A stretch of DNA of 64,000 bases, from assembly GCF_964355755.1 (NCBI RefSeq), contig NC_092673.1, forward strand, positions 17,667,648 through 17,731,647, read 5' to 3'. Under the pieces are notes generated by a model that was given only the letters and a program-made list of their open reading frames with translations, ran no database searches and had not been told where the DNA came from. The stretch is from Antedon mediterranea (Eukaryota > Animalia > Echinodermata). Numbering within the stretch: the first letter of the stretch is position 1; each line of letters opens with the position of its first letter. A program made the position numbers and the translations under genes. This document shows positions 863 to 45,264 of this stretch, piece by piece.

Positions 863-970
863 AATGATGACACTCTATTACATTCATATCTGAGTAGTGT
901 ATATCCACCTACCTTAGAAATAGTGACGTGTCTCATTCAGCATGGGACACAAGTAGCGTTGCAAAATAAG
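863..970 (+). CDS. Ankyrin cassette exon A1: NDDTLLHSYLSSVYPPTLEIVTCLIQHGTQVALQNK
   Basis: Acceptor ttcctttccAG, donor AAG/GTAAAT, 108 nt, phase 0-0; ankyrin-like T(P/L)LH...LEIV..LIQHG pattern. Confidence 0.8.
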
Positions 971-3900
971 GTAAATGTACAGGGATTTGCTAGTGTAATA
1001 GGCTAACATTATATAGATATGCTGAAGTAAACCATTCAATGAGAGAAAAAAGTAACCACATTAACAAAAATCAAATTTGATTAAAACAAACCAAATAAAA
1101 AAATAACTAAATAGTTATATATGATTTATGATAACTGATTTAAAGTGTACAAATCTTTAAGTTTCTTAATGAACAAAAAAATCTATTTTTGTTTATATAT
1201 TCAGTTATTAAATAACAATTATTGACAATGGTCTAATTAATTGTAAATATGAAATAAAATGGGACAACTACTAAACAACTAAAAATGTTTAGGTTAAAAA
1301 AATTAATAGAATCTGATTTTAATAAAAAAATAATTATTAATTAAAAACCTGCTCCCTCCCTTACCTTACAAAAAATGCTTCTGTCAGTCTATCCAGCTAA
1401 TTATAAACATGGCATTAAACTACATCTGGAGATCCGTTTCCAACCTAGGATCTTTTTGTGCAAACATTTTGCCACAAAATGAAGAGAAATGTAAACAATG
1501 TTTTGTTAGTTTTCAAAATCTAAATTGTGTGAGTAATGCAATTTAAAAAAGAAAGGCAATATGAAATTATTCTTTTCGAACTGAATGCTTTTAAGAAAAG
1601 TTCCGTCTCTTATCTTATGACTTTTTTTGAAAAATGAATTCTCGTTAAAATATAATATACTAGTAAGTGCTCACAGATGCTTTTTGAATACATAAACTTT
1701 GGTAAATAACTGAAAATTATACTGTACACAAGGCAAATAAATACAGATATGATGGAGATCTGATCCATGGTAATATATTATATTTTGTTTTCATTTATCA
1801 ATAATGATAATTAGGATTTTATCACATTATTTAGCAGTAATTGTTGTTGTTTGTATTAACAAAAAAACCCAATTTCACATATGTCTGTTGTCAGTTTATA
1901 AACTTCATGATTATGATTCCTTTTCAGGATGGTGACACCAGATCTGATCTATGTTAAGATATTCTATTTTGTTCTCATTTATCAATAGTTAACAATTAGG
2001 ATTATTTACCACATTATTTAGCAGCAAAAAACAATTTCACATAATGTTTGTTGTCATTATTTATAAACTCCATTATGATTCCTTTCCAGTATGGTGACAC
2101 TCCATTACATCCATATCTGAGGAGTGGATATACTGCACCTACCTTAGAAATAGTGACGTGTCTCATTCAGCATGGGGCACCAGTAGCATTGAAAAATAAG
2201 GTAAAGGGATTTGCTAGTGTAATAAGCTAACATTATATAGATCTGCTGAAGTAAACCATTTAATGAGAGAAAAAAGTAAGCACATTAACAAAAATCAAAT
2301 TTGATTAAAACAAACCAAATAAAAAAATAACTAAATAGTTATATATGATTTATGATAACTGATTTAAAGTGTACAGTTACCTATCATATAACATAAATCT
2401 TTAATTTTCTTAATGAACAAAAAAATCTATTTTTTTTATATATTCAGTCATTAATTAACAATTATTGACAATGGTCTAATTAATTGTAAATATGAAATAA
2501 AATGCGACAACTACTAAACAACTAAAAATGTTTATGTTAAAAAAATTAATAGAATCTGATTTTAATAAAAAAATAATTATTAATTAATAACCTACTCCCT
2601 CCCTTACCTTACAAAAAATGCTTCTATCAGTCTATCCAGCTAATTATAAACATGGCCTTAAACTACATCTGGAGATCCTTTTCCAACCTAGGATATTTTT
2701 ATGCAAACATTTTGCCACAAAAGGAAGAGAAATGTAAATAATATTTAGCCTTTAGTTAGTGGTTTCCAAAATTTAAAATGTTTGAGCAATGCAATTTAAA
2801 AAAGAAAGCTAGTATGAAATTCCTTTCAAACTGAAAATAATGATAATTAGGATTTTATCACATTATTTAGCAGTAATTGTTGTTGTTTGTATTAACAAAA
2901 AAAAACCCAATTTTCACATAATGTCTGTTGTCAGTATTTATAAACTTCATTATGATTCCTTTCCAGGATGGTGACACTCTATTACATTCATATCTGAGGA
3001 ATGATAGAATACCTACCTTAGAAATAGTGACTTGTCTCATTCAGCATGGGACACCATTAGCATTGCAAAATAAGGTAATGTACAGGGATTTGCTAGTGTA
3101 ATAAGCTAACATTATATAGATATGCTGTGGTAAACCATTCTATTTTGTTCTACTCATTTATTTATTAATAATGATAATTATGATTATTTACCACAATATT
3201 TAGCAGCAATTGTTGTTGTTTGTATTGAAAAAAAACAAACAATTTCACATAATGTCTGTTGTCAGTATTTATAAACTTTATTATGATTCCTTTCCAGTAT
3301 GGTAACACTCCATTACATTCATATCTGTGGAGTGTACATACACCTACCTTAGAAATAGTGACGTGTCTCATTCAGCATGGGGCACCAGTAGCATTGCAAA
3401 ATAAGGTATTGTACAGGGATTTGCTAGTGTAATAGGCTAACATTCTATAGATATGATGTGGTAAACCATTCTATTTTGTTCTACTCATTTATTAATAATG
3501 ATAATTATGATTATTTTACCACAATATTTAGCAGCAATTGTTTTTGTTTGTATTGACAAAAAAAACAAACAATTTCACATAATGTCTGTAGTCAGTATTT
3601 ATAAACTCCATTATGATTCCTTTCCAGAATGGTGACACTCTATTACATTACTGTCTGAGGAGAGGATATCCACCTACCTTAGAAATAGTGACGTGTCTCA
3701 TTCAGCATGGGACACCAGTAGCATTGCAAAATGAGGTAATGTACAGGGATTTGCTAGTGTAATAGGCTAACATTATATAGATCTGCTGAAGTAAACCATT
3801 CTATTTTGTTCTACTCATTTATTAATAATGATAATTATGATTATTTACCACAATATTTAGTAGCAATTGTTGTTGTTTGTATTGACAAAAAAAACAAACA

Positions 3901-6900
3901 ATTTCACATAATGTCTGTTGTCAGTATTTATAAACTCCATTATGATTCCTTTCCAGAATGGTGACACTCTATTACATTCATATCTGATGATTGGATACCC
4001 TACCTTAGAAATAGTGACGTGTCTCATTCAGCATGGGACACCATTAGCATTGCAAAATAAGGTAAATGTACAGGGATTTGCTAGTGTAATAGGCTAACAT
4101 TGTATAGATATGCTGTGGTAAACCATTCTATTTTGTTCTACTCATTTATTAATAATGATAATTATGATTATTTACCACAATATTTAGTAGCAATTGTTGT
4201 TGTTTGTATTGACAAAAAAAACAAACAATTTCACATAATGTCTGTTGTCAGTATTTATAAACTCCATTATGATTCCTTTCCAGAATGGTGACACTCTATT
4301 ACATTCATATCTGGGGACAGGATATACACCTACCTTAGAAATAGTGACGTGTCTCATTCAGCATGGGGTACCAGTAGCATTGCAAAATAAGGTATTGTAC
4401 AGGGATTTGCTAGTGTAATAGGCTAACATTCTATAGATCTGCTGAAGTAAACCATTTAATGAGAGAAAAAAGTAAGCACATTAACAAAAATCAAATTTTA
4501 TTAAAAGAAATCAAATTAAAATAATAACTAAACAGTTATATATGATTTATGATAACTGATTTAAAGTATACAGTTATTCATCAAATAACATATATCTTTT
4601 TTCTTAATGAACAAAAACAATCTACTTGTAATTTTTTATATTCAGGTGAATCACTATAATTTTGTTTAAATATTTTTACCATAAAATAAATATATATTGG
4701 TCATATCAGGGAGTTGTAAAATGACAACTCCCTGGTCATATGTAGCTGTAAAGATAACAACAATTGAAAATGGTCTAATTAATTATAAATATGAAATAAA
4801 ATGTATGTTGACAAATAATAGAATAGCAAACAAAAATGTTTGTGTTATTGTTAACAAAATTAATAGAATCTGATTTTAATAAAAAAGAATTATTAATTGT
4901 TAATAACTTGCTCCCTCCCTTACCTTCCAAAAAAATACTTCTGTCAGTATATCCAGCTAATTACAGTTTGAATATGGCCTTTTAAAGAGATCTTTTTCCA
5001 GCATTTTTTTTTTTTGCAAATATTTTGCCACAAATGGAAGAGAAATGTAAATAATGTTTAGTTTATAGTGGTTTCCAAAATCTAAAATTGTTCGAACAAT
5101 GCAATTAGACATTTTTTTATATTCAGGTGAATCAGTATAATTTTGTTTACATATTTTTGACCGTAAAACAAATATAAATTGGTCATATGTAGCTGTAAAG
5201 ATAACAATGATTGACAATGGTCTAATTAATTGTAAAGATGAAATAAAATGGGACAACTACATTGATTAATAATAAAATAACAAATAAAAATGCTTATGTC
5301 AAAAAAATTAATAGAATCTGATTTTAATAAAAAAATAATTATTAATTAATAACCTGCTCCCTCCCTTACCTTACAAAAAAATGCTTCTGTAATAGTAATA
5401 GGCTAACAATCTTTAGATCTGATCCATGGTAAGATATTCTATTTTGTTCTCATTTATCAATCATGTCAATTAGGATTATTGACCACATTATTTAGCAGTA
5501 ATTCTTGCTATGGTTTGGGTTGACAAAAAAAAACCCAATTTCACATAATGTCTGTTGTCAGTATTATACACCAACAACATTGCAAAATAAGGTAATGTAC
5601 AGGGATTTGCTAGTGTAATAAGCTAACATTATATAGATCTGCTGAAGTAGACCATTTATTGAGAGAAAAAAGTAAGCACATTAACAAAAATAAAATTTGA
5701 TTAAAACAAACCAAATAAAAAAATAACTAACTAGATTTAAACTCGTCACTACGGACGAGTTAGGTTATCCGCAGCGCAAAAGGCATGTGCACGTCATACG
5801 TTAGAATATTACGCGCAGAAAAACGTTTACGCCATTGAAAAAATGATAGTGCGCCCTCTATTTTGCGTCACGTCTGAGTATATACGGTATACACTATATA
5901 CTATATACGTATAACCATACAGTGCAGAATAGTGAAAAGAAGTGACCAAAGTTATTAACGCTTTTGAACATGATGACGTAATAACAATTTTAAAAATTGT
6001 AAATCATGCGAAAGATAATTGATTGACCTAAACAATATAAAAAATGGAGGGCAATGGAATACGGATAATTGGAGATGTGCTCTATTAAATGTGATGAGCT
6101 ATGACGAAAGAGACAAAAATCCTATTATTTATATTCGAGTGGCCATACGATGACGTCACAATGTCCGGTTAGTCATATTGATGCATGATTTGATATCTGC
6201 AACTCATCTACTACCAGAATATGTAATTTTAAAAAAGTTCACCACGTAGTTTAGAATTTATGACTGTTTAAAAAAAGGCATAATTTTGACAAATTTTTGA
6301 ACTTTTTCATCAAAAATGCGCGTAAATTGTTTAATTCTACGTGCTCGTATGACGTGATTTTAAGTCGAAATTGTTTGAAAGTTGGTAAATTTTCTAAAAA
6401 AGACAGGAAAAACAAAAATCAAGCAAAAAAATGATGTTTTTGCGCTACGTGCGCACGTGCGCGTAAAAAAATTGCGCACGCGTGGGAATTTTTGAAATGC
6501 TCAAAATGACATGAAACGCGTAGAAAGTTGATTAGATATTGATTTTTCGCATTTTGAAATTTTAAACGCGCGTAACTTTTTGTGAAACATGCCATTTTTA
6601 ATCCATAGAAAGTTTGCGCTTGATATGACTTAAAGTTTCACCAAGTTTCAATACAAAACGACTTTTAGTTTTTAATATATGATCAATCATTGAAATTCAT
6701 AAAATCGCGCGTAACTTACGCTGCGCGAATCAAAGTTCATAAAAAAAAGTTTCTTGCACATCTACAGCTACAGGGCTATCTTTTGACAAAGTTATACAAT
6801 CATATGTTGGCCAGAATTAGAGATACGCTGCGAACAAAATTCGTGGAAAGAAAGAAGAACATAGGAAAAAAATGGGTTATCCGCCAAGTGCGGATAACCA

Positions 6901-9900
6901 AATAGTTATATATGATTTATGATCTGATTTAAAGTGTACAGTTACCTATCATATGACATAAATCTTTAATTTCCTTAATGAACAAAAAAATCTATTTTTT
7001 TTATATATTCAGTTATTAATTAACAATTATTGACAATGGTCTAATTAATTGTAAATATGAAATAAAATGCGACAACTACTAAACAACTAAAAATGTTTAT
7101 TAAAAAAAATAATAGAATCTGATTTTAATAAAAAATAATTATTAATTAAAAACCTGCTCCCTCTCTTACCTTACACAAAATGCTTCTGTCAGTCTATCCA
7201 GCTAATTATGAACATGGCCATAAAGAAATCCTTTTCCAACCTAGGATCTTTTTGTGCAAACATTTGCCACAAAATGAAATGTAAACAATGTTTTGTTAGT
7301 TTTCAAAATCTAAATTGTTTGAGTAATGCAATTTAAAAAAGAAAGGTAATATGAAATTATTCTTTTCAAACTGAATGCTTTTAAGAAAAGTTCCGTCTCT
7401 TATCTTATGACTTTTTTGGAAAAATGATTTCTCGCTAAAATATAATATACTAGTAAGTGCTCACAGATGGTTCTTAAATACATGACCTTTGGTAAATGAC
7501 TGAAAATTGTTTAAATACAAAGCAAATAAAATACAGATATGTTGGAATTTATGTAGTCAAATATAATTGTCATCCTGAGAATTACCTTAATTTTGTTTAT
7601 TGCATGGTATTGTTCACCAAATTCCTGTCTTGGTACAATTGATGATGGGATGGTATCAGGCTTCATGATATGATATGATTTTCATCGAGGCAAATGGTTT
7701 AAACTAAATTTGTTATCGTTAATATCTAACTTAGCTTAATTGGTTATCCGCACTTGGCGGATAACCTCTTGTTATTGTCAGGATCTTTTTTTTTTTTTTT
7801 TTTTTTTTCTATGTTATTCTTCTTTCTTTTCCAGAATTTTGTTGGTCGCATATCTCAAATTATGGCCAGCATAAGATTGTATAACTTTGTCATAAGATTG
7901 ACTTGTAGCTGTAGATGTGCAAGAAACTTTTTTTTTTAAATTTTGAGTCGCGCAGCGTAAGTTACGCGCGATTTTGTGAATTTTGCGTATTTTACATAGA
8001 TTGAAAACCAAAAAGCAATTTTAATTGAAACTTGGCAAAAGTGTAATTTATATCATGCGCTAACCTTCTATGGATTTAAAATGGCACTTTTCCAAAAAGT
8101 TACGCGCGCACGCGCGTTTAAAATTTCAAAATGCGAAAATTCAATTTCTAATCAACTTTCTACGCGTTTCAGGTCATTTTGAGCATTTAAAAAATTCCAA
8201 CGCGTGCGCATTTTTTTTACGCGCGCGTGCGCACGCAGCGCAAAAACATCTTTTTTTTGCTTGATTTTTGTTTTTCCTGTCTTTTTTTAGAAAATTTACC
8301 AACTTTCAAACAATTTCGACTTAAAATCACGTCATACGAGCACGTAGAATTGAACAATTTGCGCGCGTTTTTGATGAAAATGTTCAAAAATTCATGAAAA
8401 TTATGCCTTTTTTAAAACAGTCATAGATTGTAAACTACGAGGTGAACTTTTTTTAAATTACACATTCTGGAAGTTGATGAGTTGTAGATATCGAATCATG
8501 CATCGATATGGCTAACAGGACATAGTGACGTCATCGTATGGCCACTCAAATATAAAATATAGGATTTTTGTCTCTTTCGTCATAGCTCATCACATTTAAT
8601 AGAGCGCATCTCCACTTATCCTAATTCCATTTCCCTCCATTTTTTTATATTGTCTATGCCAATCAATTATCTTTCGCATGATATACCGTTTTTAAAATTG
8701 TGATGACGTCATCATGTCCAAAAGCGTCAATAACTTGGGCCACTTATTTTCACATATTCTTCACTGTATGTAGTACGTATACAATATATAGTGTATACTG
8801 TGTATACTTAGACGTGACGTAAAATAGAGAGCGCACTAACATTTTTTCAATGGCGTAATGGTTTTCTCTGCGCAATATTCTAACGTATGACGTGCACGTG
8901 GCGTTTGCTCTGCGGATAACCTAACTCGTCCGTAGTGACGAGTTCAAATCTAGTTATGATATTGGTTTCATTGGGAGTTAAAAATCAGTACCGAAAGTAT
9001 GTACCAACTTTCTCTACCATTGAGTATAAATTCTAGAAGTTGCACTTAATTTACTGAAATTTCCCATTACCTAAATTTATATGTAAATTCATTAAACTGC
9101 TTATTGGTCTCATATTGTTAACATCTAAACATGTATTTGTACAATTTTATGAAATATGTATTTTGTTAATGTTCAAATTTTGTGATTGATATTGTACAGT
9201 AAGTAGATGTTAATGATTACTTACATTAAGTAATAGGCTAACAATCACTAGATCTGATCCATGGTAATATATTATATTTTGTTTTCATTTATCAATAATG
9301 ATAATTAGGATTTTATCACATTATTTAGCAGTAATTGTTGTTATTTATATTAACAAAAAACCCAATTTTACATAATGTCTGTTGTCAGTATTTATAAACT
9401 TCATTATGATTCCTTTCCAGGATGGTGACACTCTATTACATTCATATATGAGGAATGTATATAGAATATCTACCTTAGAAATAGTGACTTGTCTCATTCA
9501 GCATGGGACACCAGTAGCATTGCAAAATAAGGTAAATGTACAGGAATTTGCTAGTGCAATAAGCTAACATTATATAGATCTGCTGAAGTAAACCACTTAA
9601 TGAGAGAAAAAAGTAAGCACATTAACAAAAATCAAATTTGATTAAAACAAACCAAATAAAAAAATAACTAAATAGTTATATATGATTTATGATAACTGAT
9701 TTAAAGTGTACAGTTACCTATCATATAACATAAATCTTTAATTTTCTTAATGAACAAAAAAATCTATTTTTTTTTATATATTCAGTCATTAATTAACAAT
9801 TATTGACAATGGTCTAATTAATTGTAAATATGAAATAAAATGCGACAACTACTAAACAACTAAAAATGTTTATGTTAAAAAAATTAATAGAATCTGATTT

Positions 9901-12900
9901 TAATAAAAAAATAATTATTAATTAATAACCTACTCCCTCCCTTACCTTACAAAAAATGCTTCTATCAGTCTATCCAGCTAATTATAAACATGGCCTTAAA
10001 CTACATCTGGAGATCCTTTTCCAACCTAGGATATTTTTATGCAAACATTTTGCCACAAAAGGAAGAGAAATGTAAATAATATTTAGCCTTTAGTTAGTGG
10101 TTTCCAAAATTTAAAATGTTTGAGCAATGCAATTTAAAAAAGAAAGCTAGTATGAAATTCCTTTCAAACTGAAAATAATGATAATTAGGATTTTATCACA
10201 TTATTTAGCAGTAATTGTTGTTGTTTGTATTAACAAAAAAAAACCCAATTTTCACATAATGTCTGTTGTCAGTATTTATAAACTTCATTATGATTCCTTT
10301 CCAGGATGGTGACACTCTATTACATTCATATCTGAGGAATGATAGAATACCTACCTTAGAAATAGTGACTTGTCTCATTCAGCATGGGACACCATTAGCA
10401 TTGCAAAATAAGGTAATGTACAGGGATTTGCTAGTGTAATAAGCTAACATTATATAGATATGCTGTGGTAAACCATTCTATTTTGTTCTACTCATTTATT
10501 AATAATGATAATTATGATTATTTACCACAATATTTAGCAGCAATTGTTGTTGTTTGTATTGAAAAAAAACAAACAATTTCACATAATGTCTGTTGTCAGT
10601 ATTTATAAACTTTATTATGATTCCTTTCCAGTATGGTAACACTCCATTACATTCATATCTGTGGAGTGTACATACACCTACCTTAGAAATAGTGACGTGT
10701 CTCATTCAGCATGGGGCACCAGTAGCATTGCAAAATAAGGTATTGTACAGGGATTTGCTAATGTAATAGGCTAACATTCTATAGATATGATGTGGTAAAC
10801 CATTCTATTTTGTTCTACTCATTTATTAATAATGATAATTATGATTATTTTACCACAATATTTAGCAGCAATTGTTTTTGTTTGTATTGACAAAAAAAAC
10901 AAACAATTTCACATAATGTCTGTAGTCAGTATTTATAAACTCCATTATGATTCCTTTCCAGAATGGTGACACTCTATTACATTACTGTCTGAGGAGAGGA
11001 TATCCACCTACCTTAGAAATAGTGACGTGTCTCATTCAGCATGGGACACCAGTAGCATTGCAAAATGAGGTAATGTACAGGGATTTGCTAGTGTAATAGG
11101 CTAACATTATATAGATATGCTGTGGTAAACCATTCTATTTTGTTCTACTCATTTATTAATAATGATAATTATGATTATTTACCACAATATTTAGTAGCAA
11201 TTGTTGTTGTTTGTATTGACAAAAAAAACAAACAATTTCACATAATGTCTGTTGTCAGTATTTATAAACTCCATTATGATTCCTTTCCAGAATGGTGACA
11301 CTCTATTACATTCATATCTGGGGACAGGATATACACCTACCTTAGAAATAGTGACGTGTCTCATTCAGCATGGGGTACCAGTAGCATTGCAAAATAAGGT
11401 ATTGTACAGGGATTTGCTAGTGTAATAGGCTAACATTCTATAGATCTGCTGAAGTAAACCATTTAATGAGAGAAAAAAGTAAGCACATTAACAAAAATCA
11501 AATTTTATTAAAAGAAATCAAATTAAAATAATAACTAAACAGTTATATATGATTTATGATAACTGATTTAAAGTATACAGTTATTCATCAAATAACATAT
11601 ATCTTTTTTCTTAATGAACAAAAACAATCTACTTGTAATTTTTTATATTCAGGTGAATCACTATAATTTTGTTTAAATATTTTTACCATAAAATAAATAT
11701 ATATTGGTCATATCAGGGAGTTGTAAAATGACAAAAATCTAAAATTGTTCGAACAATGCAATTAGACATTTTTTTATATTCAGGTGAATCAGTATAATTT
11801 TGTTTACATATTTTTGACCGTAAAACAAATATAAATTGGTCATATGTAGCTGTAAAGATAACAATGATTGACAATGGTCTAATTAATTGTAAAGATGAAA
11901 TAAAATGGGACAACTACATTGATTAATAATAAAATAACAAATAAAAATGCTTATGTCAAAAAAATTAATAGAATCTGATTTTAATAAAAAAATAATTATT
12001 AATTAATAACCTGCTCCCTCCCTTACCTTACAAAAAAATGCTTCTGTAATAGTAATAGGCTAACAATCTTAGATCTGATCCATGGTAAGATATTCTATTT
12101 TGTTCTCATTTATCAATCATGTCAATTAGGATTATTGACCACATTATTTAGCAGTAATTCTTGCTATGGTTTGGGTTGACAAAAAAAAACCCAATTTCAC
12201 ATAATGTCTGTTGTCAGTATTATACACCAACAACATTGCAAAATAAGGTAATGTACAGGGATTTGCTAGTGTAATAAGCTAACATTATATAGATCTGCTG
12301 AAGTAGACCATTTATTGAGAGAAAAAAGTAAGCACATTAACAAAAATAAAATTTGATTAAAACAAACCAAATAAAAAAATAACTAACTAGATTTAAACTC
12401 GTCACTACGGACGAGTTAGGTTATCCGCAGCGCAAAAGGCATGTGCACGTCATACGTTAGAATATTACGCGCAGAAAAACGTTTACGCCATTGAAAAAAT
12501 GATAGTGCGCCCTCTATTTTGCGTCACGTCTGAGTATATACGGTATACACTATATACTATATACGTATAACCATACAGTGCAGAATAGTGAAAAGAAGTG
12601 ACCAAAGTTATTAACGCTTTTGAACATGATGACGTAATAACAATTTTAAAAATTGTAAATCATGCGAAAGATAATTGATTGACCTAAACAATATAAAAAA
12701 TGGAGGGCAATGGAATACGGATAATTGGAGATGCGCTCTATTAAATGTGATGAGCTATGACGAAAGAGACAAAAATCCTATTATTTATATTCGAGTGGCC
12801 ATACGATGACGTCACAATGTCCGGTTAGTCATATTGATGCATGATTTGATATCTGCAACTCATCTACTACCAGAATATGTAATTTTAAAAAAGTTCACCA

Positions 12901-15900
12901 CGTAGTTTAGAATTTATGACTGTTTAAAAAAAGGCATAATTTTGACAAATTTTTGAACTTTTTCATCAAAAATGCGTGTAAATTGTTTAATTCTACGTGC
13001 TCGTATGACGTGATTTTAAGTCGAAATTGTTTGAAAGTTGGTAAATTTTCTAAAAAAGACAGGAAAAACAAAAATCAAGCAAAAAAATGATGTTTTTGCG
13101 CTACGTGCGCACGTGCGCGTAAAAAAATTGCGCACGCGTGGGAATTTTTGAAATGCTCAAAATGACATGAAACGCGTAGAAAGTTGATTAGATATTGATT
13201 TTTCGCATTTTGAAATTTTAAACGCGCGTAACTTTTTGTGAAACATGCCATTTTTAATCCATAGAAAGTTTGCGCTTGATATGACTTAAAGTTTCACCAA
13301 GTTTCAATACAAAACGACTTTTAGTTTTTAATATATGATCAATCATTGAAATTCATAAAATCGCGCGTAACTTACGCTGCGCGAATCAAAGTTCATAAAA
13401 AAAAGTTTCTTGCACATCTACAGCTACAGGGCTATCTTTTGACAAAGTTATACAATCATATGTTGGCCAGAATTAGAGATACGCTGCGAACAAAATTCGT
13501 GGAAAGAAAGAAGAACATAGGAAAAAAATGGGTTATCCGCCAAGTGCGGATAACCAAATAGTTATATATGATTTATGATCTGATTTAAAGTGTACAGTTA
13601 CCTATCATATGACATAAATCTTTAATTTCCTTAATGAACAAAAAAATCTATTTTTTTTATATATTCAGTTATTAATTAACAATTATTGACAATGGTCTAA
13701 TTAATTGTAAATATGAAATAAAATGCGACAACTACTAAACAACTAAAAATGTTTATTAAAAAAAATAATAGAATCTGATTTTAATAAAAAATTATTATTA
13801 ATTAAAAACCTGCTCCCTCCCTTACCTTACAAAAAATGCTTCTGTCAGTCTATCCAGCTAATTATGAACATGGCCATAAAGAAATCCTTTTCCAACCTAG
13901 GATCTTTTTGTGCAAACATTTGCCACAAAATGAAATGTAAACAATGTTTTGTTAGTTTTCAAAATCTAAATTGTTTGAGTAATGCAATTTAAAAAAGAAA
14001 GGTAATATGAAATTATTCTTTTCAAACTGAATGCTTTTAAGAAAAGTTCCGTCTCTTATCTTATGACTTTTTTGGAAAAATGATTTCTCGCTAAAATATA
14101 ATATACTAGTAAGTGCTCACAGATGGTTCTTAAATACATGACCTTTGGTAAATGACTGAAAATTGTTTAAATACAAAGCAAATAAAATACAGATATGTTG
14201 GAATTTATGTAGTCAAATATAATTGTCATCCTGAGAATTACCTTAATTTTGTTTATTGCATGGTATTGTTCACCAAATTCCTGTCTTGGTACAATTGATG
14301 ATGGGATGGTATCAGGCTTCATGATATGATATGATTTTCATCGAGGCAAATGGTTTAAACTAAATTTGTTATCGTTAATATCTAACTTAGCTTAATTATG
14401 ATATTGGTTTCATTGGGAGTTAAAAATCAGTACCGAAAGTATGTACCAACTTTCTCTACCATTGAGTATAAATTCTAGAAGTTGCACTTAATTTACTAAA
14501 ATTTCCCATTACCTAAATTTATATGTAAATTCATTAAACAACTTATTGGTCTCATATTGTTAACATCTAAACATTTGTTTGTACAATTTTATGAAATATG
14601 TATTTTATTAATGTTGAAATTTTGTGATTGATATTTATAAATTTACATAGGGATTTGCTGGTGTAATAGGCCAACATTAATTGTAATTGTTGTTTGTTTT
14701 GACAAAAAAACAAACAATTTCACATAATGTCTGTTGTCAGTATTTATAAACATCATGATTATGATTCCTTTCCAGGATGGTAATACTCCATTACATGTGT
14801 ATTTTAGGAGGAGTAGATTAATACCTACCTTAAAAATAGTGACTTTTCTGATTCAGCATGGGGGCACCATGTTGTTCTAGGAATTTCCATGCTAGTTGTG
14901 TCTACATTAATCCTCATAGGTTTAGAACATTCTTCAAAAATAGGTCTTCTGACTGGTGCTGCCATCTTTGTGCACTCCCAAAACTGAATGATTCATTCTT
15001 TAGTATCTCTTCGGATACAAATGAAAACGATGCATTGCTCAACTTGGATCCACTAGTATGTGGAATCAACAACGATTCCAGCAGTAATTCGGACTCTATC
15101 ATTGATCCTGCAGAGGTACTGAAAGGAAAAGGCATGCATTTTCTTCATGTTAATGCGCGGTCTCTACTACCCAAAATATCTGAACTTAGAACACTTGTTG
15201 GTGGAACCAAAGTGGCAGTCATTGCTGTCACTGAAACGCACCTTGACAGTTCCATTACCGATAATGAAATACACATCCCAGACTTCCAACTATATCGTCG
15301 AGACCGTGCCAGAGCAGGTGGTGGAGTATGTCTGTACTTCAAGTCTACCCTGGCCATTACTATGCGGTCTGACTGTAACAATGCCAACATTGAGGCACTA
15401 TGGTCTGAAGTACATCTCCCAAGAACAAGGCCTATTATCGTTGGAGTCTGTTATCGGCCACCAAAACAACGTCATGGTGAATTTATTGATGGAATGGATA
15501 ACATTATGGAACAACTACCGAGAAACTCAGAGATCTACATTTTCGGAGATACAAACATGTCTAGCTTGAAAAAGGATAGCAACTATATCAAATTCCAACA
15601 GACTCTGCACATCAGTGGAATGTCTCAAATTATGAGCGAACCCACACGCATCTGTGATTCCTGCGAATCTTGTCTTGATCATATTATCACCAACTCTTCG
15701 GACAAACTAAACAAATTCGGAGTGCTATCTATAGGCTTCAGTGATCACTTTCCTATATAGGCCACTCGTCACACACAGCGACAAAAACACCACACGCATA
15801 AAAAGGTGAAGATTAGATCAACTAAAAACTACAATAGAGAAAAGTTTATACGTCTTCTTCAAGAGACTGATTGGGACAATGTTCACAAGGCAGAAACCGT

Positions 15901-18900
15901 TGATTTTTCGTGGCAAGCCTTTTGTGTAAATTTCACAAATGTTTTGGATAAAGTTGCTCCTGTAAAAGAAGTCCGAATTAGACACTCTTCTCAGCCGTGG
16001 ATGACACCTGACATACTCAAAATTATTAAGGCCAGGGATATTTATCTTAATAAATTCAAAAGAACTCGTAATTTATTATATCGTACTGAATACTGTAAAC
16101 TTAGAAATCAGGTACAAAGAAATATAAAAGAAGCAAAGCAGACTCATTTTATTGACAAGATCAATACAAATCGACATAACCCTAAAAAGTTATGGAAGGT
16201 TATAAAAGATCTTGGGTATCAAAATAAACAAAATGAAACTGCTTCGATTACTCTTAAAATAAATGATAAACTATGTAGTGAGCCAAACATTATTGCCAGT
16301 CACTTTAACTCGTTTTTTACAAACGTAGCATCAGATCTGGTAAGAAAGCTCCCGCAAAGGTCATACCAATTTGATGTAAATTCTGAGAATTTTAAAAAAT
16401 ACTATGACGGTACTGACAAATTTTCCTTGCAACCTGTAAACAACGATATAGTTAAAAAGGAGATCTTGGGTCTCAGTATAAATAAAAGTACAGGTCTAGA
16501 TTGCATACCCACACGTTTTTTAAGGGATGCGTCCGAAATTATTGCAACTCCCATAACACGGATTATCAATTTCTCATTTGAAACGGAATGTTTTCCAAAT
16601 GAGATGAAATTGGCTCGTGTTCGACCAATTTACAAGAAAAAAAATAATCTTGAAACTGCTAACTATAGGCCTGTCAGTATACTGTCGGTGGTGTCAAAAA
16701 TTGTAGAAAAGATTGTTCACTCACAATTAAATGAGTTTTTGGAAAGGAACAAGCTTTTATATCGTTTTCAGTCTGGTTTCAGACAGTCCTTTTCAACAGA
16801 TCACTGTTTAATTCACTTGACAGACTTCATTAAAACTCAAACAGCGAAAGGGAAATTTACTAGTATCTTACTTATTGACATCCAAAAAGCTTTTGACTGC
16901 GTTAGTCATGACTTACTTTGTAAGAAACTCAGAAAAATTGGAATCGAATCTGTCAGCTGGTTTAAATCATATCTGGAATGTAGACATCAAACAGTCAATA
17001 TATTGGTGGGGCTGTTTCAGAGCCTTCAGAAATTGTATGTGGAGTGCCACAAGGGAGCATCCTGGGACCACTCCTGTTCCTCATCTACGTCAATGATATG
17101 CCTATGTCTGTCTCATCATTGTTAATGCAATATGCTGACGATAGTGCAATTGTCAATGCTCATCATGATCCTGATATTATCAGTAAAAATCTTGCTAGGG
17201 ATCTGTCTAATTGTAATAAATAGTTAATTGACAATAATTTATCACTTCACATGGGAAAAACTGAACTAATGTTGTTTGGTCCCAGGATGTCTCTCAAGAA
17301 CTACACAAATTTTAGCGTCCTTTACAATGGCTATACAATTTCTTTGAATAGCTCTATAAAATACCTTGGTATCGAACTAAGCAATAGGCTTAATAGTGAA
17401 TTAATTGTCTCAACAATTATTAAGAAAGTTAATGGTCATATTAAATTTGCGTATAGGAATTGTCGTAACTTTGATCGCTGTATTCGTAAACTCATAATGG
17501 AAGCCCTGGCTCTAAGCCATATAAATTATGCTATATCATCCTGGTACTGGGGTACAACCGCGGATTCCCGTACTAAACTTCAAAGAACACAAAATAAAGT
17601 AATTATTGTATTGTCTCATATATGGTACATCTGCAGCATTGCAAAATAGGGTAATGTAGGCTTACAAAGAATTGTCAGGACAATTTCACATTTTATTGTT
17701 ATCATGAGTATTTATAAACTTGAACTTCAGTATCAATTAGCCTCCATATTAATCAATAGTATTACTACCTCAACGAGCAGCATTATTTAATCAGACTTAC
17801 CGATATAGAATTCTCAAGTAAAAAATGTTTGATTGTTTTCACCTTTTTCTCTTTTTACACATAGCACATTCTAACAAGTTTGTTTTGATTTTGATATTCA
17901 TTTATAAGTCAACTATAATTGTAATGTGTTGTTGTTTTAATATTTCATTTGTATCTTGATAGTATCCAAATATTATTTGCTTTGAAAGTTTATTGTAAAA
18001 CTATTTGTTGTTTTATATTATGGCTCAAACATTTTAACACATTTACCTACTGTTCCAAAGTAAACTTTTATTCAATTTATCTCTCTCTCTCTTCCATCTT
18101 TCAATGTTGAAGGCGGTAGACTATAAACGGCAGCGCTTAAGTTTTGGTTTGGATACAGGAGTTATAGGTGGCGCACTGTACAAGTTGATGTCATTTATTG
18201 GCAAATAGTAATTTCTATTCACGTCCTAATTTACAACCAATGTTAAAAAATAGTAAAGCTACGTGTTATCACATGATGCTCTTTCATCCAATCTCTAGAT
18301 GGTAAATGTTTGAGCCATGACTGTATGTATGTGATGCGTATTAAAGTGTGTTATATTGTATATCAATAATTTCTCAAAAACTACTAATAGTAACTAAACC
18401 CATTTTTTAATAGGATGGAAATACACCTGTCTCTGTTTTAGAAAGTAACAGGTGGATAGGGCACAAGAGAAAAACTGAACTTTTAAACTTCTTTAAAAGT
18501 AAGTGAAGTTTTAATTATTAAAATTTTGGAATCAACTAGTTTTCATTACAAACGATAAAGATTTGATTTTTTGTCCCAAATGAAGAAGAATGTCCAGATA
18601 AAGAAAATTAACATTTATGATATCATTCACAGGTTCAGATGGCAATAGATTAAATAATCCACTGGGATTGTAGTAAACCATGGAGTAAAGAATAAGAGGA
18701 GGCACAACTCGGCCTAGCTATCCAGTTAATCCAATTAGTATCACGCTGTGCGGTAGTGCTTAAGCATAGGGTAATAAACTTCCCATAACGATCCTTTGAA
18801 GAACATCCTGTTTACCCGTGCAGCTCGCTGCAGAGTCGGCTCTGATTACGTAACACCCTAATTAAGGAAGAAGCCAGGCATGACATCGGTGACAAAAAAA

Positions 18901-21900
18901 GTAAACAGAGGCTGCGCAGTAGTTTCTAATACATCATAGTGAAGCATGACCTTTGTGCAGTTGTTCATTGTTCTTTGAGCTTTTTTCTCGAAAAAACCGT
19001 TTAAAAATCGAGTAAATTTTCACGGAGATATCGCAGTTTTTATACCAGCTAACAAATTAATCATATTTTTTGTCAAGCCATAGACGTATCATTTGGTAAA
19101 TCGAAATTTTACCGTTTAAGCAACTTTTTAATTTACGAACCCTAGTGCATTTTGTAGCATATTAAAGACTCCAACTTATTTTAAAATCACATTTTAGTGC
19201 GCGCAAATGCGCGCATGAAAAAAATTATATAATTTGTTCTCATGAATATTCAAAAATATACGTATAGTAGAATTCCAACGACACAATTTCTTATTTTTAT
19301 TACTGTATATGACATTTAATTTATGTTTCAGTCTATATTATGACTGTTTAGCAAAACTAACATTCTTCTATTTTAGTCTGATATTGTATAATTAAATTAT
19401 TTATGATATTAATATCATAAAATATATGATTTTTACGATCACTTAGAGTTCAGTGAACTTGTAGGACTTAAATTATATATCGTTTAACGATTTGTGGCTA
19501 CACATAGGCCTAGTAGTTCGTAATATATTATTATTTAATAAATAGCCTAAATAAGGATAATATTTAATCCCATAATGATGGACATATTTAGTGCATACCG
19601 TAACCGGTAGGCCTAATAGGTTCAGGCATAGGCGCGCCTATAGTAACAATAAACAATATCAATAATAATAATAGGTTTTTTTTATGTAGGTCTATATTAA
19701 TATATTAATAATTGTAATAACGTTAGAAAACAAATAGTAGTAATATTTTATTAAAGAAGAAATTAATCAATTAGTTTTAGTTTTCGGTTGGTCGTTATTA
19801 TAATATTATATAATATGGTATAAAATGGTACGGTACTACGAGAATATTCGTTTAGTATCAACCCGTAACAACAACTACAAATGATATGTGTTGGTTAAAA
19901 ATTCAATTACAAATATAGTCTATGCTCTTTTGTAATTATAAGCCATTGTATAAAAGGATTATGTACAGTTCGGTACATAGCGGTTAATCGTAAAATTAAA
20001 AAATCGGACATACGAACAATAGATCGCCAACATTATTCGTACCCTTTTGCTGTATTGCGTACGTCGATCATTACTGATGCGGCTGTAAACTTCGCCTGGA
20101 AAGTAACTAGTACAGTACACATTCTGGTCCCTGGATGGAACATGATATCACACGTAAACCGCAATGGAGCAGGTCCAATGTTAAACAATTCGTACAAAGG
20201 GGAACCGCCAGACAAGTGCGTACCTAATCATTGTTTATTAGATCGCTGGCAATAATGCATGCAAAGTGCAATAGCTCTCCGCTCCACCAAGCAACGTACA
20301 GTACTAAAAAAATGGAACGTCGCGGTTTTTCTAGGCGCTGAAGTTATACGAAGTGAACGCGAATGATTTTTACTGTATATTATATTCCCCGACGAAAAGT
20401 ACTCGCGTTTCCCAGACGGGGAAGAGGGGAGGGGGGGGGGAGACGACGAGGGGATACAGCCCCCGTAACCCCCCGCTGGCACCACCACTGGTCCTTATTA
20501 AACCCATTTATTCATCATGATTCATGATAAGTTGTCTGGAGAAATTACCAACATTTAGTACACAGTAAACCATATAAATATAATTCCTTTGTTGGTGCCG
20601 TATAAAACTCGTATTATTAATTTATTAATAAAAGATATCCAGTAGAATATATATATAGCGCTGCTTTTTAATAAAAATTAATAAACAAGGTCGGAATACA
20701 AGTTCAGTAGGTCTACAAACAGTATATAGTACACCTTTCACGCTTGAACGCACATCGCCTAGCAAGAGTATTGTGACGTCCTAATACGCATGTGTACTAA
20801 CACCAAAATTGACCGCGGGCAGTAAACATTGTACTCTTTGCTAATTGGGTTACGTAACGGCAGTGTTTAGCACCTCCTTAAATACTCATTACAAGCATAG
20901 CCTTAAGCAAGCGGTAAACACGATGAACTGACTGAACTATTCAAGTTGTGTCTCCTCTTATTCTTTAACATGGAAGTTGTGATATGTTGCAAGATGTGAA
21001 AACCTTATTTTTTATGATTTGAAAATTGCAAATAAATTAGAAAAATTATTTTGCCATTACGATAAAAATACACAAAAATGCAAACTTTAAAATTCCTTTG
21101 AATTAACAATATTGAATAAATTTGGCCACACTTTTTTTTTTATGGAACGTCATTTTTCACATCAAATCAATCTCTTTATTCATCAATACATCAAAACAAT
21201 TATACATAAACAAAATAAAGATGTGAAGATGAAAGGGACCTCCAAGAAACCCAAAGGGACTTGTGATAAAAGGCCCACTATAAGCTAGTTACAAATAAAA
21301 CATACAAAAAATAAATTAATAAAATTAATAAAAATCCTGTATAGACAAATACACGGGATGCGCATTGTTAAGGAATATTTGAACTTTATTAATTGCATAT
21401 AAATGTAAATGTAGAATATTTTTTTTTTAAATGTAATCTATTTTATATATAATGGTATTATTTAAAATATGTATTCGCAATCGGGGCAAACAATTTACGA
21501 TAGGAGGAGATAAATATTGAATTTAACAAGGCCATATAGATGGCTGCAGTCGCTTGCTCAAGTTAGTGTTTACCAACCGACCGACATAGTGAGTTGTAGA
21601 GTGGCGTTGCACATGACTAAAAATCTAATTTTCTTGTTAATCCCATTTTTTGTTTCCACAATGAATGAATTTTCTTCACATACTTTAAGCCAGCTTAAGA
21701 ATTCTATTTCTCTGTATGTAAAATTAAGCATCATACATAATGTATTTTACCTTGGCTCCTACAATTGTATTATCTTGCAACTTCTTATGCAAATAGGCAC
21801 AAAATAATAAGTAATATTTGAGCATAAACGCTTAAATAATTGTAAAAGTTGTTATAAATTAATGAGCTTTCAGTAGAGTACTTACACACAGAATAATAGA

Positions 21901-24900
21901 ATATTGCATTCATATTTTGTTTCTTTTTATTCCCAACTTGTTGTTACTTTTTTCTGGGAGCCTAGGCTTAAAGTTTTATACTTTTAAGGTTTCCTTCCAC
22001 ACATACTATGTTTATTAATTATTATCTTACATGTTTATATAATTATTATTTTATGTATTTTTAATATGTGTGAAGAATATTTATTCAATATCTATTGAAT
22101 ATTGCATAAACGAATTGAATTGCAAATATTTATCCTTGGCTTGGTGTAGGCCTACTAAAAAAGGTTGAGAATACAGAACCAAAACTGATAGTAATGTATG
22201 ACAAAGTGAACAAACTTTTATAGTCTAAGGAACTTTCTTAGCCAATACATACAAGATTAAACCATTAGGTAAGAGTTCAAAATCTATTTCAAAGACCCAT
22301 CCCTACAATTTTCGACTTTTTGTAAAAATAATGCAATATTACTTTAAAAACATTAAACCAGGTTATTCCTTGTCTTATGTACGTTTTATGGTAAATTATG
22401 ATAAAATGAAAGAAACAATGCACTACCTAAGTAGCTCGCAGTTTATTTATTATTATAAAGTTGATTAAAATCATTAATAAACTTATATTTCTTCTCAACT
22501 TTCTGATCGTACCAGACGTAGCCATTGCCAGTGGAACAAAGCAAATCGTTCACTTGTTTAGCCCAACAATGTTCATTTCTATTAGTTTTTCTTAATTGAA
22601 ACATGTAACATTTAAAAGGAAATCTATTTTTATCTATTTCCATGATTTGTAACCAATAATGAATAATAGAAATAAAGCAATCAATGTTTAAGGATAGTCT
22701 GCCTAATTCTGATTTGACAGCCACGCTGGGTGCGCTGTTTCCAATGCCTAAATAAATCTTAAAAACGTGTATGTAAATGATCAATTGGTGATAAATTCGA
22801 AAAGCCCCATGTCTCACTCCTGTAAATTAAAATTGGTAAAACTTTGTCAAAAATGTGTTTCCATATATTCTCTGGTAGGTATTTTGTTTTGCTATTAATT
22901 GATTGTAAATAGTACGTACGTTATTTGCTTTTTGACAATTGTGTTCAATTGTGTTATTCCACTGACCATTTGAATTGAAAACCACTTCCAAGTAAGTATA
23001 CGATTTAACAACTTCCATTTTAATGTTTATGTAATACCATTTTTCATATTTTCTTAATTTTTCACCTTTTTTAAATACCATTATGTTTTATTTGTTTACA
23101 TTTACACCCATGTGTCACAAAATATTTCCAATATAATTATTAAATTTTGTAAGCCTTTACTGTGTCTACGAATAGTAATAAATCAGCAGCATATAGCAGA
23201 TGGTTTATAAAGCAATCCCCGAATGGTATTTTTTCGTTATTTTGATTTAGCTAGTAATTCATAAATATATTAAAGATGATGGCAGGGGTGACCCTTGTTG
23301 TATTCCAATTGAACATTCAAATAGGAGTGTTAATGAGTTTCCTATTTTTACATGCGCTATCAATTGGAAACTAAATAATATATATGACGTCATATATATT
23401 ATTATTTACACCTATTCTTCTTAATTTTAATAATAGAAAATTATGATTTGTACTGTCAAGTGCACGTTTTAGATCAACGAAGCAACAACATATTCTACCC
23501 CTATATTTTTGAATTATGCTGTTAAGAATTAAAATATTATCTAATGTGCGGAATCCCTTGCGAAAACCTGATTGTTCTTGTTAAATAATGTTATTGTTTT
23601 CAAGTATGGTTAGTTATTCTAGTGTTAAGGATGTTTAAAAATATTTTGCCAAGAATTGGAATTAGAGAAATGCCCCTATATTAAATACTAGGCTAGACTT
23701 ACCAAATATTTATTTTGTTTTCAAATTTAGCGCCAGCTGAACCGCTGCTTCAATAGGCTAAAATAGTCCTTGGCTGTACTGCTAATAACTAATTGTACTG
23801 TATATTCATTACATTGGTGGTGGGCGGGGGGCGGTGTTCTTCTAAACACCAAGCCCTTCAAAGTATAACTAAGCTCGACCAAGTGTATAAAGTGTATATT
23901 TTACAAAATATTTATATTATACAAACATTTAGAGTGTTAATTGCATTTTAAGCAATAAATACATTTAGAGTAATTATGACACATTGTACATTCTAGGCTG
24001 ATGTTTAAATTTTTTATTTTTTTACAATTAATATTTACAAAAGTGTAGCGTACACACATAATGGGGAACTAACGACTGGGGACAGTGGGCACGTTTTCTG
24101 AGCGTGCTTTAGTAGGACCACAAAAGCGCCCTTATTGTAAGCAAAATTGTTTGACATCAGCCTAAACCATGGTGGGGCTCGAGTTATCTTTATTGTGTTT
24201 TGACAAACAGGTATAAAAACAAAATTGGTTACTGGTCATAAAACAGAATATAAATAAAAACATTCAAAAAGTTCAAAGCATATTGAAAACTTACGATAGA
24301 TGTTTTTAATCGCATTTCCTACTGCCTAATTCTGAATCACACCAGTTATTCATTTCAGGATTACTTTATTTTCACTTTACCCATTGAAACCATGCTAATC
24401 AACTGTATGTTGCTAGAATTTCAACGATTTAGATTCAGGGTCGCTGTCAAAAAATGTTGCATAACGTCTATATGTTTAAATGAGTTTGAGTTCCACAATT
24501 TTTTTTAGGACATAATTTAAATTAATAACTGTAGTTGTTAACTGTATACATTGTAGTTAAAAATATACATTATTATTTATTATAGTATATTCAGAATGAA
24601 TGATTGCTTGTACACAGTCACCCACAAGTGTTTGTAAGGCTTTGTATCACACAGAGCCTTTATATATAACCTTATACCATTGAAACAAAAAAAAAGACTT
24701 TTAATATAGTGTTTTTTATGAAAATATATAATATGTAATATTTTTGTTTTGTGCATTTTTTTAGATTTACCAAGTACTACTGTTGAGCAATTTCAAACAC
24801 AATTTCAGAAACAGACAAGTGACAAACAGAAAACAAAACTTCTTAAGCCAGAGAGTGGTAAGTTTAAGAATAAGACCTGCTGTATGTTTTATGATTGTAT

Positions 24901-43693: not shown

Positions 43694-45020
43694 ATGCATA
43701 TAACCTCTTGATTCTGTCAGGATCTTTATTTATTTATTTATTTATTCTTTCCTTAGCACTATTTTGTCCGTGAATTATCTTGATATCAGTTTCATCTAGC
43801 TAAGTCAATTTTTCAGAGTATATTCCTTATGGCCAGGAATCGATGTGGTTACGTTTTCACGGTGCGCAATCAAACATTACGCGGTCTACGCGCGATTTAA
43901 TGAAATCACGTTTGTAATCATATCTTCACAAGCATGAATCATTTTTAAACAAAATTTGGTACTCATAAATTTCAGGTCATATTTTATCATATGGCAATAC
44001 AATTACGTGCGTAGAGCAAATAACGCATGCGTTTTGCACGCGCAAAACCGCGTGCGCAAAAACGCGTGCAAAAATTACTGTTGTATAACCTTTCTTTAAT
44101 AATATCATCATATTTTATTCACTTTTCAACGCGAAACAGCGTTATACGAGCACGTCAAAAGTGACAGGCTACGCACGTGTAAGTTAACAAAATGGTGAAA
44201 ATATGCTAAATTTTAAAATTAATATATATCGTTAGAATGCTCGGGAACACCTATTTTTTATTTCATTTTCTTGAAGTGTATGTATCATATGTATGATTTA
44301 TTATGAAATTAGGAGAAAAAAAGTTGATTAAGTCATCATTAATGGCATATTAAATTTAAAAAATTAATTTTGACAATCAAACAAATTATAACATTTTCTT
44401 AGGCCGAAATAACAAACTTAACATTAACTTTCTTCTTTAAGAAGTTCATATATTAAAGTTAAAAGTATACAGTTTGACAGTGCATCATTTTTTTTAATTT
44501 TTAAAGATGTCATCATAGTAAAACATTATAATTCATTGCGGTATGTTATAATCTATCTGCACCAAAGTGGTTACTGCATAGTAAATACACGGAGGAATCT
44601 TTCCATAACTTTAGTCAGTTGTGTATGGCTCGGTGGTCTTTGCTCGTGTCTATAGCATTCAAGGTACCGCGTTCGAGTCTTACCTTGGGAAACGAAACAA
44701 AATAAGATTTTTTTTTATTATCCGTATTGTTTGTTCAATTGTATTTCTTAGTGTATACGTAGATTATACACATGATTTATAATGAAATCTAAATAAAAAC
44801 ACAAATGTGGTTTATGACATTATATACGCAGAAGGATCTTTGATCGGATTATGATACCGGCTATTGTATTTGTGTTAGCAAGATCCTATAATATATTATA
44901 AATAACTAACGATTCTGAGAAAATCAATCAATCAATATATCTTAAATCAATCAATCAATTATCTTTATTTAAATCAATGCATATAACCTATAATTCGTGA
45001 TAGTGACGAATTAAATCTAG
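43694..45020 (+). mobile_element. HINE family 2 element
   Basis: 5' atgcatataacctcttgattctgtcaggatc plus (ttta)n; 3' tgcatataacc, hairpin, CTAG. Confidence 0.72.
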
Positions 45021-45264
45021 TTGTGCTTTGTTTTATGACAATTACACGAATAGCAATACTTTGTTTGGAAATGTTGGTTTATGGCAACCAGTTGAATCCA
45101 TTGAAGTGTTTCTCAACTATTTTATTTTTACACTTACAGCAAAAATTGCAATTCAAATTACAGATTTTAATTAGAAATTCAGAGGCTTAAAAGCTATCTT
45201 GGTGAACACTACAAGGCTGATCACTATCTTTTGCTCAAATTCAGAGGCTTAAAAGCTAATCTTG

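Follow-up and report, generated by a model that had tools for sequence, protein, structure and literature searches.

Ankyrin exons of two tandem Roco-family genes in a feather star: concerted evolution and likely diversifying selection at the predicted binding face

Introduction

Why should tandem exons that are alike over most of their length differ from one another at a handful of codons? The question is raised by a stretch of 64,000 nucleotides of the feather star Antedon mediterranea (NC_092673.1, positions 17,667,648 to 17,731,647; the window below), an AT-rich and intron-rich DNA that contains two arrays of ankyrin-repeat exons. An earlier note, made from the sequence alone, had read the pattern as diversifying selection on top of concerted evolution. 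These exons are assigned to two tandem Roco-family genes, A and B, predicted to combine ankyrin repeats (ANK), ROC and COR domains and a tandem death-effector domain (DED) pair. We consider it likely that the arrays undergo concerted evolution together with diversifying selection on the predicted binding face of what is probably an intracellular sensor. Proteins are designated below by P numbers and sequencing runs by X numbers.

Results

Ankyrin exons of genes A and B

A motif scan of both strands of the 64-kb window detected 18 ankyrin-like exons on the plus strand and 0 on the minus strand. Their lengths are 105, 108 or 111 nt; each exon is in phase 0 at both ends and encodes one repeat; 13 are located at 863-14886 (gene A) and 5 at 57193-63964 (gene B). 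All have an AG acceptor, 17 of the 18 have a GT donor and a stop-free frame, and lengths change only in multiples of 3. Among five exons submitted to Pfam, three scored above the Ank cut-off, one fell just under it and one had no match. The paralogous protein P0013 passes Pfam, and its AlphaFold2 model reaches a predicted local distance difference test score (pLDDT) of 89.7, confirming that the units are ankyrin repeats. The earlier note had found the 18 exons but overlooked their ROC-COR-DED context.

863-970, plus strand: gene A ankyrin exon 1, loop SSVYP; the array extends upstream beyond the window
2090-2200, plus strand: gene A ankyrin exon 2, loop RSGYTA; Pfam Ank above cut-off
2967-3074, 3298-3405, 3628-3735, 3957-4061 and 4284-4391, plus strand: gene A ankyrin exons 3 to 7, in a 330-bp tandem unit of exon and intron
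9421-9531, plus strand: gene A ankyrin exon 8, loop RNVYRI
10305-11398, plus strand: gene A ankyrin exons 9 to 12, identical to exons 3, 4, 5 and 7; the unit of exon 6 is absent
14776-14871, plus strand: broken ankyrin exon 13, loop RRSRLI; an extra base near the 3' end, followed by a long interspersed nuclear element (LINE); no donor site
57193-57297, 59834-59941, 63203-63313, 63536-63640 and 63860-63964, plus strand: gene B ankyrin exons 14 to 18; the array exceeds the window

Positions 1-630 of the window are homologous to the array intron at 13980-14635. All tests of variation and selection reported below were performed on the 13 unique intact exons of the 18, the four duplicates and exon 13 having been dropped.

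Variation is focused on the predicted binding face

Every loop sequence quoted in the earlier note is present in the window exons, and the fifth exon of gene B carries a MIGY loop beyond those the note had listed for that gene. The residues given for codon 1 (N/Y/D/H), codon 3 (D/N/E) and codon 8 (S/P/Y/G/L/T) were recovered as well, the V claimed at codon 8 being that of exon 13. The statement that these positions differ between nearly all exons holds for the loop (12 of 13 distinct), whereas codons 3 and 8 are each dominated by one residue (D in 10 and S in 8 of the 13 exons, respectively).

Pairwise difference was 35-46% in the loop versus 7.5% in the proximal introns. It ranged from 4.6% (gene A) to 10.8% (gene B) in the P..K framework; the introns are therefore as variable as the framework, contrary to the view that both barely change. 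The loop varies by whole codons and contains the in-frame indels; codons 9-10, flanked by hypervariable codons, show one singleton each. Differences had been described as almost all non-synonymous: we counted 49 non-synonymous (N) and 9 synonymous (S) changes over 35 codons, but 73-75% N is already the neutral share, so that the overall excess is modest (P 0.024-0.049). ACG/ACT is indeed the main recurrent silent change (ACT in 3 of 13 exons); AGG/AGA and TAT/TAC (2 of 13 each) also recur, both in the loop.

The register was set by aligning P0013 to designed ankyrin repeat proteins (DARPins; 6mol). Codons 1, 3, 8, 11 and 12 correspond to ankyrin positions 3, 5, 10, 13 and 14, and the variable-length insertion comes after them. 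In the model of P0013, which resembles DARPins with a template modelling (TM) score of about 0.8, helix 1 contains codons 8, 11 and 12, while the loop preceding it contains codons 1 and 3. According to the accessible part of the ANK-N5C study (PMC4308713), positions 2, 3, 5, 10, 13 and 33, in the beta-turn and helix 1, were randomised and form one binding surface. The variable codons are thus predicted to lie on the ankyrin binding face. We take position 14 to belong to the classical DARPin randomised set, which is consistent with the 6mol repeats, and the position of codon 8 presumably was not randomised in classical DARPins. The parallel with DARPins drawn in the earlier note is borne out at codons 1, 3, 11 and 12, but codon 8 matches ANK-N5C only, positions 33 and 2 hardly vary, and the length-variable insertion is without DARPin counterpart. 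For the tests, the face was defined as the union of positions 33, 2, 3, 5, 10, 13 and 14, a set that derives from the literature but was fixed after the data had been seen.

Amino-acid changes at the face exceed neutral expectation

Tree-free counts, from which loop codons 13-14 were excluded as ambiguous, gave 23 N and 2 S changes at the 7 face codons and 17 N and 5 S changes at the other 26 codons. The face N count was matched in 0 of 1,500 neutral simulations under any of six settings (independent, block-shared or single genealogies), the simulated mean being 6.8-7.0. The total number of changes in these simulations was set about 10% lower than observed; a scale-free share test gave at most 1 in 1,500. 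Permutation of face versus rest gave P 1e-4 (2e-4 for gene A alone and 5e-5 for gene B alone), and the result persisted when exon 14 was removed and when either 6-site set was used (P 0.001-0.01). With 68 intron columns as its anchor, a fixed-site model assigned a ratio of non-synonymous to synonymous rates (omega) of 4.9 to the face and 1.0 to the rest, with a free face rate of 1.1. The focusing of variation claimed in the earlier note is thus confirmed, with an estimated dN/dS above 1 at the face when anchored on introns.

Site models of the PAML type, as suggested in the earlier note, were also significant in our own implementation (2dL, twice the log-likelihood difference, of 19-23 for M1a/M2a and 21-23 for M7/M8; omega2 about 6.3), but they are unreliable under recombination. 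Applied to neutral recombining simulations, the M1a/M2a-type test returned 27/68 and 23/68 false positives at a nominal 5% (34-40%). We therefore relied on the tree-free counts.

The alternative that survives best, which we regard as unlikely, is neutral: an indel-rich loop would block conversion or mutate faster, so that the variable codons would be locally hypermutable or escape homogenisation. The loop does hold in-frame indels, synonymous diversity is raised in the codon set of the earlier note (piS 0.20 versus 0.048 elsewhere), and a hot-spot site model (HOT) fits nearly as well as M2a over all 35 codons (log-likelihood -493.9 versus -493.0). A neutral hot spot should, however, also accumulate silent changes: matched simulations gave 5.3-6.2 for the 2 observed (P 0.006-0.028), and the 8 four-fold sites in the hypervariable half carry 0 silent alleles. 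The near-invariance of codons 9-10 and the distance of codons 1 and 3 from any indel also disagree with this explanation, and the likelihood-ratio test of hot spot versus selection gave p 0.02-0.025. Hypermutation of the deaminase type was ruled out by the substitution spectrum (9 transitions, 18 transversions).

Less probable still is relaxed constraint alone, whereby surface residues tolerate change, buried ones do not, and homogenisation sharpens the contrast. The framework accumulates silent changes over the distance to a related species, and the same positions are high-entropy in natural ankyrins generally, as stated in the accessible part of PMC4308713. Relaxation caps omega at 1, and the excess at the face therefore speaks against it: an omega of 1 at the neutral rate was rejected for the face (2dL 32.5, tree-based), and the N count exceeds what neutrality predicts about 3.3-fold (23 versus 6.8-7.0). 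This test presumes that introns are a fair neutral standard, the invariant 18 nt before the acceptor having been left out.

These 18 nt, which precede every ankyrin exon, are identical in 18 of 18 units, including that of the broken exon 13. They could be a constrained splice signal or a conversion tract.

Positive selection at binding-face sites, a defining property of fungal HiC-type arrays, is thus supported here, with a margin over the hot-spot null of only P 0.006-0.028. We conclude that selection acts on the predicted binding face with good probability.

Units are homogenised within and between the two genes

Between units of the two genes, the intron flanks diverge by 0.075, as much as between units within gene A (0.076). 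The MIGY loop occurs in exon 6 (gene A) and in exon 18 (gene B), which differ by 3 bases, all non-synonymous. The equal likeness of A-B and A-A pairs and the near-identity of exons 6 and 18 indicate that the framework is homogenised. Conservation of the framework is not visible at an omega of about 1, and in this respect the interpretation in the earlier note is overstated. Among informative site pairs, 51 of 120 are incompatible with a single tree, although a test resembling the pairwise homoplasy index revealed no decay of incompatibility over distance (p 0.18-0.44). Off-face repeat identity is 0.86; high internal identity is combined with exchange within and between genes, and repeat number differs between two array blocks of the window. 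In the unitig letter table (40 of its 93 rows listed), silent changes occur at five framework third positions, most strongly in a related species. The proposal of diversifying selection on binding-face codons atop concerted evolution is therefore supported in both its parts, by the omega contrast between face and rest and by A-B units being as alike as A-A units.

The same sites vary in relatives

In three paralogues, six distinct repeats (of 7) are variable at the sites that vary in the window and carry additional residues there (rho 0.60, p 2e-4). The arrays of the Roco proteins P0042 (XP_071964198.1, a complete ANK-Roc-COR-DED protein model) and P0047, both encoded on other contigs, have 73% and 55%, respectively, of majority framework residues in common with the window array. 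Internally they are 85-87% alike and vary mostly at positions 3, 5, 10, 13 and 14; their site variability correlates with that of the window (rho 0.49 and 0.44; face versus rest, p 0.009 and 0.0004). P0042 and P0047 are two more Antedon Roco subfamilies with homogenised ankyrin frameworks of their own. All these relatives were compared as proteins only and therefore show focusing, not dN/dS. Among unitigs aligned to one ankyrin unit, codons 11-13 account for 12 of the 28 exon rows listed.

The family is expanded. Of 26 matches to P0006, 18 apparently lie on the contig of the window, 15 of these with Roc and/or COR. A precomputed ankyrin domain is absent from all 23 Antedon proteins that match P0006, indicating that the sensor part of these genes is mostly missed by current gene models.

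Domain architecture of the Roco genes

From the sequence, each gene would encode an N-terminal cap, the ankyrin array, a C-terminal cap, ROC-COR and the predicted tandem DED. In gene A, the array is followed by 20 GT-AG exons (18414-38763) and a terminal exon, open in frame for 975 codons that encode cap, linker, ROC, COR and a helical C-terminal exon.

18414-18498, plus strand: C-capping repeat exon, phase 0 to 1; P0015 has a homologous segment after its last repeat
24765-24857, plus strand: linker exon, found also in P0006, P0012 and P0015
26142-31621, plus strand: ROC GTPase exons; P-loop GQEGVGKT in 26142-26289, WDHGGQ in 30594-30751, ILIVGTHKG in 31448-31621
31856-34828, plus strand: COR exons; COR-A E 1.9e-7, COR-A above the Pfam cut-off in P0004
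38224-38763, plus strand: exon of the predicted tandem DED pair; Pfam DED E 0.0016, under cut-off; terminal exon from 38914
47890-49632, plus strand: gene B start (47890-47897) and N-cap exon (49539-49632), which resembles in kind the N-terminal 34 residues of P0013 and P0014

Roc and COR-A matches of single window exons are weak, but the near-identical paralogue P0004 is above both Pfam cut-offs, as is P0015 for Roc; the ROC exons of gene A are 88% identical to P0015. The P-loop and later G motifs in frame, followed by COR, identify gene A as a Roco gene, and its ROC domain is a predicted GTPase. No Pfam match to NACHT or NB-ARC was detected in the window exons or the paralogues examined. The family is apparently not one of NLRs, although it may act like one.

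The last domain of gene A is probably a tandem DED. The exon (38226-38762) is 100% identical to P0001, an Antedon mediterranea protein, and 12 of 12 search matches came from the same feather star; Pfam DED was matched in 11 of 12 family members (best E 1.1e-8), the window exon itself lying under the cut-off. A low-confidence model (pLDDT 52.7) retrieved caspase-8/cFLIP DED assemblies at all top 10 Foldseek ranks (E 0.06-0.13), and comparison of the exon with PDB sequences gave no match.

Several observations concern this end of the gene. In 38914-39634, acceptors at 38914 and 38921 are both possible: the former terminates the protein immediately, as in P0001, and the latter would remain in frame with an additional exon at 39580. 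Two tiny duplicated exons (35420-35455 and 35896-35937) with basic motifs resembling nuclear localisation signals lie between COR and the DED pair. Paralogues vary in these tiny exons and, at the C-terminus, in the type of domain (DED, death, kinase, predicted membrane tails).

Connection of the array to ROC-COR in gene A is suggested by compatible splice phases and by the fused paralogue models P0015, which joins two ankyrin repeats, cap and Roc, and P0042. When assembled reads were compared with 14640-26720, neither an ankyrin-to-cap nor a cap-to-ROC joint was present among the 15 joints listed out of 87, repeats having swamped the comparison. Joints between ankyrin exons were obtained: in run X5 (same species code, another study; presumably RNA), the end of one ankyrin exon is followed directly by the start of an ankyrin exon in three contigs, and loose contig ends run on into adjoining exon sequence, and run X9 (another species code) contains a similar joint. 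None was listed in X1 (492 contigs aligned) or X6 (158). X5 also covers introns and the LINE and is therefore not pure spliced RNA. The joints in X5 and X9 indicate that members of the ankyrin family are spliced; they do not distinguish which exons are joined and thus leave gene and exon order aside.

Damage and a repeated block in the arrays

The arrays contain the following remnants and insertions.

1928-1938, plus strand: dead unit, 5' ankyrin exon stub
Near 5565-5591, 12221-12247 and 59582-59608, plus strand: 3' ankyrin exon stubs without acceptor
14872-17605, plus strand: broken LINE with apurinic/apyrimidinic (AP) endonuclease and reverse transcriptase, within the last ankyrin unit; a degenerate 3' exon remnant lies near 17608-17650

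The four stubs of deleted ankyrin exons sit in introns. A block of about 5.7 kb (2025-7741) recurs at 9354-14397 with 0-5 mismatches per segment, which is why exons 9 to 12 are identical to exons 3, 4, 5 and 7; the second copy lacks exactly one unit, that of exon 6.

These features would suit a decaying array of pseudogenic repeat DNA, or two haplotypes assembled in tandem, as would the framework omega near 1, the broken exon 13, the LINE and a long terminal repeat (LTR) element within the arrays, and the missing precomputed ankyrin domains, but we give this explanation very little credence, since frame, donor and acceptor are intact in 17 of 18 exons with length changes in multiples of 3, the tail is open for 975 codons over GT-AG exons, exon-exon joints exist, and false duplication would not alter the tests, from which duplicates had been removed.

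The two blocks may represent a very recent duplication or two haplotypes in tandem; an entire ankyrin unit and an element inserted near 7742-8963 set them apart. The LINE is also covered by contigs of X5 and may thus be old and common to paralogues. The LTR element (59999-62471), in a gene B ankyrin intron, is a broken Ty3/gypsy-like retrotransposon with reverse transcriptase, RNase H and integrase. The gene B intron after the N-cap exon holds a 71-bp minisatellite in 24 and 14 copies (49738-51437 and 52527-53512), interrupted by an element of about 1.1 kb with inverted ends. A non-coding high-copy element with a terminal hairpin, which we take to be reminiscent of Helentron-type non-autonomous elements, is present at 5722-6872, 7801-8963 (inverted) and 12378-13528, with related pieces at 25262-26077 and 44208-45022.

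Discussion

The signal of diversifying selection on the predicted face is real and moderately well supported. Several observations weigh against this interpretation. The sample comprises only 13 sequences of 33-35 codons. Two positions of the design set, 33 and 2, are nearly invariant, off-face codons 5, 29 and 31 vary as well, and the four-fold site of codon 2 varies genome-wide in the unitig letter table. The number of codons with at least 4 residues is not significant alone (P 0.05-0.10). Inclusion of loop codons 13-14 raises the p value of hot spot versus selection to a non-significant 0.07, and without the intron anchor a one-omega model with a faster face fits like the general model (p 0.33). 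Of 136 neutral recombining simulations, 7 attained the observed M1a/M2a value of 19.0. With a framework omega of about 1, purifying selection is not visible in the window. Finally, the DED match of the window exon does not reach the Pfam threshold, and the model of this domain is of low quality (pLDDT 52.7).

Clustering of amino-acid changes at the predicted face most likely results from selection for new binding specificities, while exchange between copies would keep the remainder of the repeat alike. Unequal crossing-over and gene conversion would shuffle, spread and homogenise units, each repeat contributing one patch of a concave binding surface, and selection would retain the variants that alter this surface. 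The domain layout suggests that the array may act as the sensor and ROC-COR as a switch turned by ligand binding, the tandem DED possibly recruiting partners of the caspase-8/FADD type.

Immune or allorecognition use would be the likeliest reason for such selection, and the odds that the proteins are intracellular immune (non-self) sensors appear to us about even. A bolder version, which we hold to be doubtful, is a natural DARPin library in crinoids: the ankyrin exons of several Roco subfamilies would be exchanged between genes and alternatively spliced into a large, individual-specific set of intracellular receptors that trigger DED/caspase-8 cell death on encountering pathogens or non-self tissue. 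If true, deuterostomes would possess a class of receptors of which no description exists so far.

What is known of immune repertoires in echinoderms concerns mainly expansions of TLR, NLR and Transformer genes. The ANK-ROC-COR-DED genes, their DED being predicted, indicate a further expanded class. They likely mark an undescribed animal Roco GTPase family selected to recognise many targets, and they provide a handle on what kinase-less Roco proteins sense. We found no publication dealing with crinoid Roco genes, nor any account of such ankyrin exons in them, in the literature covered, from which subscription journals are mostly absent, and the accessible text of PMC8195603, PMC9334734, PMC13449251, PMC8683736 and PMC8229355 contains no description of the pattern.

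Among animal proteins, DAPK1 and LRRK2 have a ROC-COR core with ankyrin repeats, and DAPK1 also has a death-fold domain. The window genes share this core with both and with P0031 (LOC117112651), an ANK-Roc protein of the crinoid Anneissia japonica; they have no kinase domain. The repeats of P0031, judged by eye, are ordinary divergent ankyrins and differ from the homogenised array described here. With designed ankyrin libraries, the window array has in common a fixed framework, variation at positions 3, 5, 10 and 13 (ANK-N5C, accessible part of PMC4308713), variation at position 14 of the presumed classical DARPin set, and the fold (TM about 0.8). It differs in being natural, in keeping positions 33 and 2 nearly fixed and in its repeats of 35-37 residues with a variable insertion. 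It thus offers a natural ankyrin scaffold with a length-variable loop, absent from designed libraries.

The closest parallels in mode of evolution come from outside animals. In the fungus Podospora anserina, the ANK, WD40 and TPR repeats of NLRs are highly conserved internally and combine concerted evolution with positive selection, according to the accessible part of Dyrka et al. (2014, PMC4986451). In comparison with these, as far as that text describes them, the window genes belong to an animal host, use ROC-COR rather than NACHT or NB-ARC as the switch, place the repeats N-terminally and the predicted effector, the tandem DED, C-terminally, encode each repeat in an exon of its own whose introns are homogenised along with it, and carry an insertion of 1-4 residues, variable in length, at the turn between helix 1 and helix 2. 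Brown algae have LRR-ROCO genes with one leucine-rich repeat (LRR) per exon (Zambounis et al., 2012, PMC3341825; Teng et al., 2024, PMC11378527). The accessible parts of these reports describe a clustered and expanded Roco family, symmetric exons of one repeat each that are exchanged within and between genes, dead exons within introns, a concave face under diversifying selection and a proposed role as immune receptors, all of which recall the window. The feather star genes differ from them in having ankyrin instead of LRR exons, a C-terminal predicted DED pair and 0 opposite-strand exons; alternative splicing has been reported for the algae. The evolutionary regime as such is already on record for the ankyrin repeats of fungal NLRs and for the LRR exons of brown-algal ROCO genes, its occurrence in crinoid Roco genes apparently being new. 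Together, these systems suggest that brown algae, fungi and an animal have converged on the shuffling of one repeat per unit combined with selection on the binding face.

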